Below, one piece after another: positions 43,426 to 46,400 of a DNA stretch of 64,000 nucleotides. This DNA is from Rozella allomycis CSF55 (Eukaryota). Numbering within the stretch: position 1 is the first letter of the stretch; every line of letters starts with the position of its first letter. Under the pieces are notes generated by a model. It saw only the letters and a program-made list of their open reading frames with translations. It did no database searches and was not told the DNA's origin. The translations under genes were made by a program, and so were the position numbers. The stretch spans positions 124,001 through 188,000 of the forward strand of contig KE561117.1 of NCBI GenBank assembly GCA_000442015.1, read 5' to 3'.

Positions 43426-46400
43426 ATGCTAAAAGCGCGACTATATTCCTTCAAAGCGCATCCATTTATATTCCGATTTGGCACTATCCGGCCGTTGAAT
43501 GCCTACGCGATCTCGATCGACCCATCATCGCGCGCGAGAAATAGTGTGAGTGCAGTTCAGCAGGGCCACCTGAACCGGATAATCAACAGCAGCATCAAGA
43601 GTGCGAATCCAGTTAGTACGATCTTGCCATTCATCCAGACGTATATCCGGCAGCAGGAGCTAGTTTGTGCCGAGTATTTAGTGGAGTATATGAAAAACAA
43701 CCACGAAGCGTTGTACGAGCGGGAGGTGTTGAGTGTGCAGCTGTGCAATGCGTTTGTGCGGCAGTATATGTTGCGGAGTGTTGATGTTGAGAGGAGTGGG
43801 TATTGGGTGCGGGAGATGGAGAGGTATGGGGTGCGGCCGAATGGGCAGACGTATTTGATATTTCTGAGGGCTGAGCTGCGGAATGGCGGGGAGAATGTGC
43901 GGAGGGTGTTGGAGGAGATGCGGAAGGTGGGGGTTGGGCTGAGAGCTGTGTTGATGGTGCTGGATGAGGATGAGGGGGAGGCGTTGAAAGAGGTAAGGTG
44001 ATGAATGGGGTGGGATAGATTGTGAGGGAAGGTGGGAAGGGGATTGAAGAGTATTGGAAAGAGTTGAGAGAGATTGAACGTAAGGAAAGTAGCATGGAGA
44101 ACACAACAACTAGTGCAGCAAGTGCGTCAACAAGTGCATCAACAAGTGAACCTGCTACATCAACTAATTCAACTTCATTAATAAATGTGATGGAAATAAA
44201 TAAAGAAATAAATTCATCGTTTGGAATTGAATATTTGAGAAACGCATTGAAACCACTAGAAAAAGACTACAAGGATGATTTCCTGTTGCAAGAGGCAATA
44301 GAGAACAAATCATATGAAGCATATGAAGAGTTTGAAAAGATAATGAATGAAAGATTCTACAAGCGAGTTGGGATAGTGAATACCAAGGCGATCTCACCTA
44401 TCCTGACGCGACTGTCTGATAACATGATAAGAAAGATCCATGAGAGTTTGAAAGAGGAGAGTGGGGTTGTAGAGTTGATTAAGGGGATTAAAGCGAATAG
44501 AATTTGTTATTTGATTTTGAGTTTGATTTGTCGAATGGATTGTTATGATGAGAGTGGGAGAATTCAATATGCGAAATTGGTGTTTGATTTTGGAAGGGAA
44601 TTGGAAGAATCGCAGAGGAGTTTATTTAAAGAGAATGATAAGAAGATTAGAGCTATTATAAACAGAGAGAAATTGAAGAGGGACAGGAGTGTTAACAGTG
44701 ATAAGTTGAAAGGTGAAAATTTGAGCAGTGATAGCTGTGACAGGAGTGTTAACAGTGGCAATAGTAACAGTGATAACAGTGGAATAGAATCTACTTCTAC
44801 TCCCTCCACTACATCTACTACTTCTACTACTTCCCCTCCTACTACTGATAATTTTGAAAGAGATTTGTTTGTGATTGAAAAAGAATTAGATGTTCGATGG
44901 AGTGAAGAACAAAAGGTGATGATAGGATCAAAGTTTATAGATTTAATGTTGGATAATTGCCAAGTACCCATGTATTTATTAGATGCGAATGAAACGAATA
45001 GAAAGAATGTTAAAATATTTGAATTCAAGAAAGAGTATCCAACAGGGGTTATTAAATGTCATCCAATGTTTATTAATTTAATTAAAAAAGATACAAAGTT
45101 TACTCACATTAATGCATCAATGTTTCCGATGGTTGTTCCCAGTCGCAAGTGGGTAACAATAGACGAAGGTAATTGAATGAGTATAAATTGTTAATAGGTA
45201 AGTGTAGTAGTTGTACTTGTTACTAGGTAAGCTTAGTAGTTGTACTTGTTACTAGGTAAGCTTAGTAGTTGTACTTGTTACTAGGTAAGCTTAGTAGTTG
45301 TACTTGTTACTAGGTAAACATCTAATTCTTACTATTTATAGGTAATCTCTTTTAATTCTCCTTTACTAGGTAATCTCGTCTGTTTCTCCAATAATATAGG
45401 GGTTTTTTAACATTGTCTAATTGCACAGTTAGATTTATTGGGAATAAATTTCAATCAGCAGAATTTATTAAAAAGGCAGAACAAGTTGGAAGATTAAAGT
45501 TAATGTTTAATGCATTGGATATTCTTGGAAGAACCAGCTGGAAAATTAATTTTAAAATTTTGAATATTTTGATTGAATGTTGGAATAGAAATTTAGAAAT
45601 TGGTTCTCTTCCAAAACTATTAAATTTATCAGATTTCAATAAACCTAAAAAATTATCAGAAATGAAAAAAATTAAACAAAAATTATCTTCAAATCACAGC
45701 CAAGTTTGTTCTACTTTATACAAATTAGAAATAGCAAAAGCATTCGTTAATAAAACTTTGTATTTCCCCCATAACGTTGATTTCAGAGGTAGAGCTTATC
45801 CAATAGCCCCTCATCTAAGTCACATTGGTATCAAAGTTGTTTATTCTATTTAATAAAGGCGATGATGTCTGCAGAAGTTTATTACAATTCTCTACAAAGA
45901 AACCACTAGGCAAAAATGGTTTCAAATGGCTCAAAATTCACATTTCTAATCTATTTGGTCATGACAAGTAACAAGGATTAAATTAATTATTAAAGATGCT
46001 CTTTTCAAGATAGAATTAAATTTACTGAAGAAAATTCAGAAAATATTATTAGATCTGCTACTCAGCCACTAGATCACACGTGGTGGCAATCTGCTGAAAA
46101 TCCATTTCAGTTTCTAGCTGCGTGTATTGAATACAAGAATTGCATTGAAAGTGGTAATGTTGAGTCTTATGAATCTGCTATGCCTATGCAGTTGGATGGG
46201 TCATGCAATGGGTTACAACACTATGCGGCACTTGGCAGAGATTACAAAGGTAACAATGTTTAAGTAGGCGTTTATATAGGTATTCTATGATTAGTTCTTT
46301 CATTAAGGTATTCTATGATTGTTTCTTTCATTAAGGTAATGGATGTGTATTTCTATAATAAAGGCGCCAAGTCTGTAAATTTAATTGATGGTGAAAAGCC

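Follow-up and report, generated by a model that had tools for sequence, protein, structure and literature searches.

How is a reading frame restored when several intron-sized segments stand end to end within it, with no exon between them, and how would such an arrangement come about? This question is raised by the gene for a phage-type mitochondrial RNA polymerase of Rozella allomycis CSF55, which lies in the 64,000-nt stretch of DNA analyzed here (contig KE561117.1 of assembly GCA_000442015.1, positions 124,001 to 188,000 of the forward strand; hereafter the window, to which all positions refer). Positions 46250-46363 on the forward strand are occupied by four contiguous GTA..AG units of 30, 28, 28 and 28 nt, 114 nt in total, with zero exon letters between them. 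This interruption is referred to as chain 2, chain 1 being a run of eight such units in the same gene and chain 3 a pair of units in an Argonaute gene. We think it probable that chain 2 is made up of four minimal and autonomous spliceosomal introns, arrayed in tandem with zero-length exons between them, which would be removed stepwise; the array would have grown by duplication.

Anatomy and reading frame of the interruption

The composition of chain 2 had been described in an earlier note, made from the letters of this DNA. When the letters were re-read, the four units, the split glycine codon and the absence of an ambiguous base (N) from the interruption proved exact in every detail. The Gly codon is divided as G|GC (phase 1), the upstream exon ending in GAT TAC AAA G and the next exon beginning with GC GCC AAG. 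Zero Ns occur within 46250-46363, the closest one being at 46551. Reading through the 114 nt leads to a TAA after four codons and to a TGA further on, and removal of all 114 nt yields the conserved protein sequence, which is that of the annotated protein P0121. When one unit is taken out alone, stops or frameshifts remain, as is expected of intermediates. The exact restoration of the frame, to which the note had pointed, is real, but it would hold equally for a single intron.

Each of the 14 units of the three chains, including the four of chain 2, starts with GTA and ends with TAG or AAG, and the internal AG|GTA junctions number three in chain 2, seven in chain 1 and one in chain 3. In its splice ends, in the restoration of the frame by removal of the whole chain, and in the length and composition of its units, chain 2 agrees with U2-type GT-AG introns; by the juxtaposition of AG and GT within the intervening sequence, it also agrees with recursive splicing through zero-length exons. 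As had been noted, units 2 and 3 are near-duplicates, with 93% identity, and units 1 and 4 are 60-68% identical to these two. Tandem Repeats Finder (TRF) called a 28-nt tandem repeat at 46278-46354.

The protein sequence around this site was compared with that of 80 metagenome loci, fetched with the conserved exon and 44-62% identical to it. Seventy-one of the 80 read through the site of chain 2 uninterrupted, with the spacing GRD-xx-G-x-x-x-VNL. Because these relatives read through with the same spacing, the protein requires the removal of all four units, and the claim that the joined exons encode a conserved protein was borne out both by these loci and by P0121. In one locus (L057) an intron of ordinary appearance lies one codon further on; the other eight fall outside the motif pattern. 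The position of the chain 2 intron is not common to these distant relatives, which are too distant to share the intron; a whole-protein scan for close relatives in metagenomes found none. The closest relative of the exon (L001; 62% identity, GC 0.30, match at 2615-2860) runs through this region for about 160 codons without an intron, past the sites of both chain 2 and the 29-nt intron downstream.

Chain units and ordinary introns

Twenty-nine single introns were collected in the window from joins of long open frames and from two homology-anchored genes. They measure 24-33 nt (mode 26-27) and have GTAA (20 of 29), GTAT (six) or GTAC (three) as donors. Their acceptors are TAG (16 of 29) and AAG (13), with CAG and GAG both at zero; such a preference is unusual. 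The lengths of the 14 chain units lie between 26 and 30 nt, with ten GTAA and four GTAT donors and nine TAG and five AAG acceptors. Mean GC was 0.27 in the chain units, 0.25 in the single introns and 0.36 in the exons of the polymerase gene. By size, ends and composition each chain unit is indistinguishable from a normal intron, and the 114 nt taken as a whole lie far beyond the length range of single introns. Because the size and end signals of the units match those of ordinary single introns, the comparison supports the view that each unit is a splice-competent intron.

Scans of open-frame joins gave a clear peak of intron lengths at 26-30 nt and were too noisy above 40 nt to bear on the existence of ordinary long introns. 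Inspection by eye of the single introns and the units showed no clear branch point motif common to their AT-rich 3' parts, no formal motif search having been made. Median intron lengths of fungi range from 29 to 197 bp across one study (PMC8042348; this and the other papers below are cited from excerpts).

Recurrence in the window and chance expectation

A scan for head-to-tail GTA..AG units revealed three chains, of eight, four and two units, in two genes within 64 kb. Chain 2 had been put forward as an instance independent of chain 1, and this was upheld; chain 3 is a third instance, in another gene. The scan hit for chain 3 spanned 20502-20588, and its first 33 nt, being GC-rich exon, were left out. 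The conserved sequence of the Argonaute protein is obtained only with both units out, and taking out either one alone results in a frameshift.

In dinucleotide shuffles of the window, chains of three or more GTA..AG units of 24-33 nt appeared in one of 200 and chains of four or more in none of 200. Because of the latter result, a chance origin of chain 2 is excluded. The verified interruptions of more than 33 nt in the window (54, 114 and 231 nt) are each an exact concatenation of intron-sized units.

A candidate fourth chain at 6137-6193 was rejected: its first "unit" belongs to the beginning of a small open reading frame, which leaves only the 32 nt of the second part as intron. In the other two-unit matches of the scan the first "unit" was GC-rich, hence exon. 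The Argonaute gene that carries chain 3 extends over 17900-21000 of the forward strand, with ArgoL1, PAZ, ArgoL2, ArgoMid and Piwi domains, and contains several introns of 26-28 nt besides the chain.

A second DNA form of the locus

An independent contig of 6712 nt, from a public DNA sequencing run (X5), spans positions 44835-47000. In chain 2 it has 30 extra letters behind 46260, with the junction ...TATAG|GTAAT..., so that unit 1 is present twice, and it has lost 2 nt near 46360, with the AG end left. It also shows at least six substitutions, none among those listed being in a GT or an AG. Chain 2 in X5 consists of five units of 30, 30, 28, 28 and 26 nt, 142 nt altogether, which is not a multiple of three. 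In chain 1, X5 lacks 27 nt and has seven small indels and at least 17 substitutions; rebuilt from these edits, the chain has seven units of 31, 29, 30, 29, 28, 30 and 30 nt, each GTAA..TAG. In both chains of X5 all junctions and GT..AG ends are kept and the units measure 26-31 nt, despite at least 23 substitutions and several indels.

The variants of X5 recur in a further run, X2, and a third, X1, shows them at about half its depth beside the form of the window; two DNA forms of the locus therefore exist. Variation in unit number, for which the earlier note had proposed to look, was found between them in both chains (four versus five units in chain 2, eight versus seven in chain 1). That note had also named a single unit in genomic DNA as an outcome that would count against it; the X5 contig carries five units, and an X1 contig matches the letters of the window at 46255-46297. 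Comparison of the forms shows at least seven differing sites in about 1312 nt of exon around the chains, and at least 26 in about 404 nt of intron, where there are also indels that are not multiples of three. Because of this divergence of introns versus exons, and because of the non-triplet indels, the chains are non-coding.

The repeat in chain 2 could be thought an artefact of assembly or scaffolding, like the N-flanked duplications elsewhere in the window. Thirteen of the 19 single Ns in the window lie inside two-copy tandem duplications, and one such duplication (46456-46657; two copies by TRF) lies 90 nt downstream of chain 2. The latter is an artefact, as X5 skips 46550-46644. Chain 2 itself, however, is free of N and its units differ from each other, and the same X5 contig that skips the downstream duplication runs through chain 2 with five units; the X1 contig agrees with the window within it. 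We regard an artefact as exceedingly improbable, and for chain 2 this reading is excluded.

In chain 1, the X1 and X2 contigs break at the three identical 29-nt units, so that contigs cannot confirm the copy number there, and one X1 contig skips 58 nt, perhaps by collapse of the repeat. The single Ns of the window (e.g. 2458, 3518, 4230, 46551 and 59366) stand, in the 13 cases mentioned, in the middle of duplications of 18-153 nt; such N-centred duplications are what overlapping contig ends leave behind at scaffold joins when they are not merged.

Relatedness of the units and origin of the array

The identities between units were judged against a null of 378 pairs of unrelated single introns under the same alignment (mean 0.60, 95th percentile 0.71), which was built on 28 sequences, three of them out of register by 1-2 nt. 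Units 2-5 of chain 1 are 93-100% identical to each other, comparable pairs being units 2 and 3 of chain 2 and the Argonaute pair (89%). The other neighbouring units, at six junctions, have identities of 0.63-0.71, and all six junctions are still AG|GTA; four of them lie in chain 1, all with full intron ends. Units 1 and 4 of chain 2 had been called unrelated to units 2 and 3 and to chain 1, and indeed no kinship is demonstrable, the identities being within the null range. If the dissimilar units are old duplicates, 30 signal positions would have been kept and the rest would have drifted to background, which points to selection on the internal sites.

Tandem duplication of a whole intron is the most likely way in which the array grew, aided by the AG|G microhomology at both intron ends. 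Copies other than exact whole introns would break the frame and would not survive selection. Units 2 and 3 represent a recent duplication, and the other units are either old copies that diverged to background or introns of separate origin. For units 1 and 4 a duplication origin is proposed.

Alternatively, unrelated mini-introns might have been inserted one after another at the AG|GT junction, by reverse splicing or as introner-like mobile introns; this reading competes with ours in the matter of origin alone. Beside an existing intron, such a junction would be an ideal proto-splice site, and units 1 and 4 of chain 2 and units 1, 6, 7 and 8 of chain 1 are at background similarity to their neighbours. 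The intron position, moreover, is absent from the 71 related loci and is probably a lineage-specific gain. The demonstrably young events, however, are all local, namely units 2 and 3 of chain 2, units 2-5 of chain 1, the Argonaute pair and the extra unit 1 of X5. No near-identical copy of any unit was found at another intron site in the 64-kb window, where the best cross-site identity was 0.76 (99th percentile of the null). Insertion is considered an improbable origin, and tandem duplication is retained in what follows.

Stepwise or one-step removal

Because the introns of R. allomycis are so short (about 24-33 nt), recognition would have to be across the intron, each being recognised as a whole unit (intron definition). 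Because each internal boundary is AG|GT, any unit or run of adjacent units could be removed to leave a shorter valid chain, and every path would end with AAA G joined to GC GCC. The nearest donor-acceptor pairs would be used first. Because the nearest acceptor is that of the unit itself, which is also transcribed first, one unit per step would be expected to be removed during transcription, mostly from 5' to 3'. Two adjacent units could hardly be occupied at once, which would make their removal sequential. The array would have no known role beyond its own removal, and would be tolerated as each copy can splice itself out.

Chain 2 had been taken as clean evidence that such an architecture is functional. 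The units do match single introns, and X5 keeps their ends; what is supported by this is that the chain is removable, but removal in one step would fit as well. The main rival is accordingly one ordinary intron of 114 nt, excised in a single step from the GT at 46250 to the AG at 46363, which holds a 28-nt minisatellite and whose internal AG|GT sites are unused by-products. A repeat of that period was indeed called by TRF in this region, and copy-number change by whole units is typical of minisatellites. Unit 1, however, lies outside the repeat, unit 4 resembles units 2 and 3 no more than unrelated introns do, and both have the ends and length of an intron. The four junctions of chain 1 that likewise join dissimilar units are at odds with a minisatellite, as is the composition of the verified interruptions of more than 33 nt, each of them made of whole units. 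Under intron definition, the spliceosome would be expected to turn first to the proximal acceptors, if these are functional (PMC7138796). Finally, no RNA structure pairing the outer sites was found beyond that of shuffles (z +0.86 for chain 2, -0.26 for chain 1). We judge one-step removal to be rather unlikely.

Several points nevertheless weigh against stepwise removal of autonomous introns. The removal of the units and its steps are read from DNA alone, the outer donor and acceptor could pair directly, and the public annotation models one intron. Gain and loss of whole units between the two forms is plain minisatellite behaviour too. Most of the single introns were selected with a GTA donor required, so that the donor match is partly built in, but the match of the TAG and AAG acceptors is not. 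Several AT-rich gaps of 46-113 nt between open frames in the window are candidate longer introns. Unit 8 of chain 1 (30 nt) has no in-frame stop, and selection against its retention is not evident. The survival of the units in X5 is suggestive only: when equal numbers of changes were placed at random, the full parse was kept in 1130 of 20000 trials (5.7%) for chain 1 and in 8813 of 20000 (44%) for chain 2, the joint p being about 0.025, with 33 of the 42 substitutions of the X5 contig piece used and with gaps as the aligner placed them. Conservation of the junctions is, moreover, judged from two forms of one species. The metatranscriptome X13 gave only two short matches of 90-95% likeness, which are unrelated to the chains and have no bearing on expression.

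A wider reading is offered tentatively, as a possibility that falls short of being probable. The Rozella spliceosome would accept only introns of about 24-33 nt, so that intervening sequences could grow by whole-intron steps only, and tandem duplication of mini-introns would create new introns in a process ongoing throughout the genome. Their lengths would be "quantised" at about 28, 56, 85, 114 ... 231 nt, up to eight successive splicings across zero-length exons would be needed for one interruption, and unit number would vary by allele.

Comparison with known systems

Zero-length exons with recursive splicing have been described in two cases in Schizosaccharomyces pombe (bioRxiv 10.1101/226894). 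There, as at the "ratchet points" of Drosophila and in the chains described here, a 3' splice site stands directly beside a 5' splice site (AG|GT), and piecewise removal would re-create a usable site and lead to the same mRNA. The known recursive sites, in the excerpts cited, occur singly or in small number within long introns (336 nt in S. pombe; the long introns of Drosophila) and are thought to aid the removal of these. The Rozella chains, in contrast, consist of nothing but minimal introns of 26-31 nt, up to eight in a row, whose internal sites are presumed to be used, and their segments are tandem duplicates or look-alikes of the normal intron of the genome.

Fungal U2-type introns combined into stwintrons or complex intervening sequences are spliced consecutively, and small duplications have been proposed as their origin (PMC7138796, PMC8469720, PMC9024468, PMC12403724). 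In the nested introns of fungi the spliceosome was reported to select whichever splice sites enclose the smallest possible intron (PMC7138796), with which one-unit steps in the chains would agree. A stwintron is nested: its internal intron breaks up the donor, the branch element or the acceptor of the external one, whereas the Rozella units abut and any order of removal would work. The classification of chain 2 as a stwintron was considered and rejected, as its units abut end to end, each with its own complete ends.

Gain of introns by tandem genomic duplication across AGGT is also known (PMC3265369, PMC4974935). As in the Rozella chains, the duplication provides an extra donor-acceptor pair and a spliceable segment, with the mRNA unchanged. 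That model duplicates a segment of exon, part of which becomes an intron between exons, whereas in Rozella a whole intron is doubled in place and no exon comes to lie between the copies. Ultra-short introns have been reported in microsporidia (PMC6349667); in reduced or compact eukaryotes these form a narrow length class near the physical minimum, as do the introns of the window (24-33 nt), and chains are not mentioned in the excerpts cited on such introns.

A literature search on Rozella introns, tandem or abutting introns and recursive splicing yielded no description of chains made of minimal introns throughout; the genome paper of James et al. 2013 may mention them. The components are known. 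As far as searched, what is new is an intervening sequence of minimal introns only, up to eight in a row, with a unit number that differs between alleles.

The origin of new spliceosomal introns has long been an open question, with few clear cases of recent date. At this locus whole introns are doubled in place, the copies span the range between identity and full divergence, and two forms of one species have different numbers of units. If the units are spliced singly, intron definition would work on a unit of less than 31 nt without any exon context, and the chains would be a natural test bed for the minimal spacing of two introns, with quantisation of length as a simple prediction. Should the tentative reading of quantised growth be true, this would be the most extreme natural recursive splicing, and it would let the birth of introns be watched in progress, in a lineage that neighbours the microsporidia with their near-absence of introns.

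The host gene and its public model

The gene that carries chains 1 and 2 was identified as that of a phage-type single-subunit RNA polymerase, based on a match to Pfam PF00940 (RNA_pol domain, E 1.1e-69) and on the presence of the catalytic DGSxxGxQH block, which we take to be polymerase motif A with the catalytic Asp. PDB matches were to the mitochondrial RNA polymerases of yeast (6ymv, E 1e-126) and human (about 1e-106) and to T7 RNA polymerase (about 1e-65). The features of the gene, and the chains of the window, are listed in Table 1.

Table 1. Chains, exons and single introns referred to in the text (positions in the window; chain 3 belongs to the Argonaute gene, all other features to the polymerase gene)
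Feature	Position	Strand	Length and remarks
Chain 2, unit 1	46250..46279	+	30 nt, GTAAC...TATAG; doubled in X5
Chain 2, unit 2	46280..46307	+	28 nt, GTATT...TTAAG; 93% identical to unit 3
Chain 2, unit 3	46308..46335	+	28 nt, GTATT...TTAAG
Chain 2, unit 4	46336..46363	+	28 nt, GTAAT...TAAAG; 2 nt shorter in X5, AG end kept
Chain 1	45169..45399	+	8 abutting units of 29, 29, 29, 29, 29, 28, 28 and 30 nt; all GTAA..TAG
Chain 3 (Argonaute gene, Piwi domain)	20535..20588	+	2 abutting units, 26 + 28 nt, 89% identical
T7-like mitochondrial RNA polymerase gene	43690..47856	+	start as in the annotated protein; end from our own reading of the frame, ...STYFFS followed by a stop
Exon with catalytic block	45996..46249	+	ends GAT TAC AAA G, phase 1; aligned to the 80 metagenome relatives
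Exon after chain 2	46364..46757	+	GC GCC AAG TCT GTA AAT TTA (G-AKSVNL); holds the N-flanked duplicated stretch (assembly artefact)
Single intron	43993..44018	+	26 nt
Single intron	45828..45858	+	31 nt; 27 nt in the X5 form
Single intron	45968..45995	+	28 nt
Single intron	46758..46786	+	29 nt; joins ...SGNISRK to the next exon; relatives read ...RKVVKQTVMT... across
Single intron	47613..47638	+	26 nt

The annotated protein P0121 (1166 residues; [quoted passage not shown]) was found among longer proteins with the C-terminal exon as query, over which the identity is 100%; among proteins of similar length the search turned up distant fragments only. When P0121 was mapped onto the window, the annotation was seen to treat precisely 46250-46363 as a single intron of 114 nt.

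At three places, namely chain 1, 46486-46786 and 47827-48057, the public gene model seems to be in error. In chain 1 it has a 39-nt intron, a 19-nt exon taken from within a unit (VVVLVTR) and a 173-nt intron, apparently as a frame repair. Public gene models are thus misled by the chains, the polymerase gene carrying an invented mini-exon of seven residues, and intron counts and lengths in comparative studies of early fungi and microsporidia may be off. At the second place 301 nt (46486-46786) are removed where the 29-nt intron at 46758-46786 suffices, with which a Ser/Thr-rich insert stays in the protein. At the third, the model splices beyond the natural ...STYFFS stop and adds a 3' extension (47827-48057); the C-terminus ending in ...STYFFS is presumably typical of the polymerase family.

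Directly after chain 1 there is a run of G (45396-45403) which has four Gs in the window and five in X2, in X5 and at about half the depth of X1, the extra G lying behind 45398. With four Gs and all eight units of chain 1 removed, the protein would read ...IDEGVF and then meet a stop, out of frame; with five Gs, it would continue in frame as ...IDEGGFLTL.... The four-G run is matched exactly by an X1 contig, and the shorter run is therefore present in reads. A frameshifted allele, or else a systematic error in the homopolymer, may account for the form of the window.

The insert at 46486-46757 is of low complexity, acidic and rich in Ser and Thr, and it follows the GAKSVNL block within the polymerase domain; the eight relatives inspected lack it.

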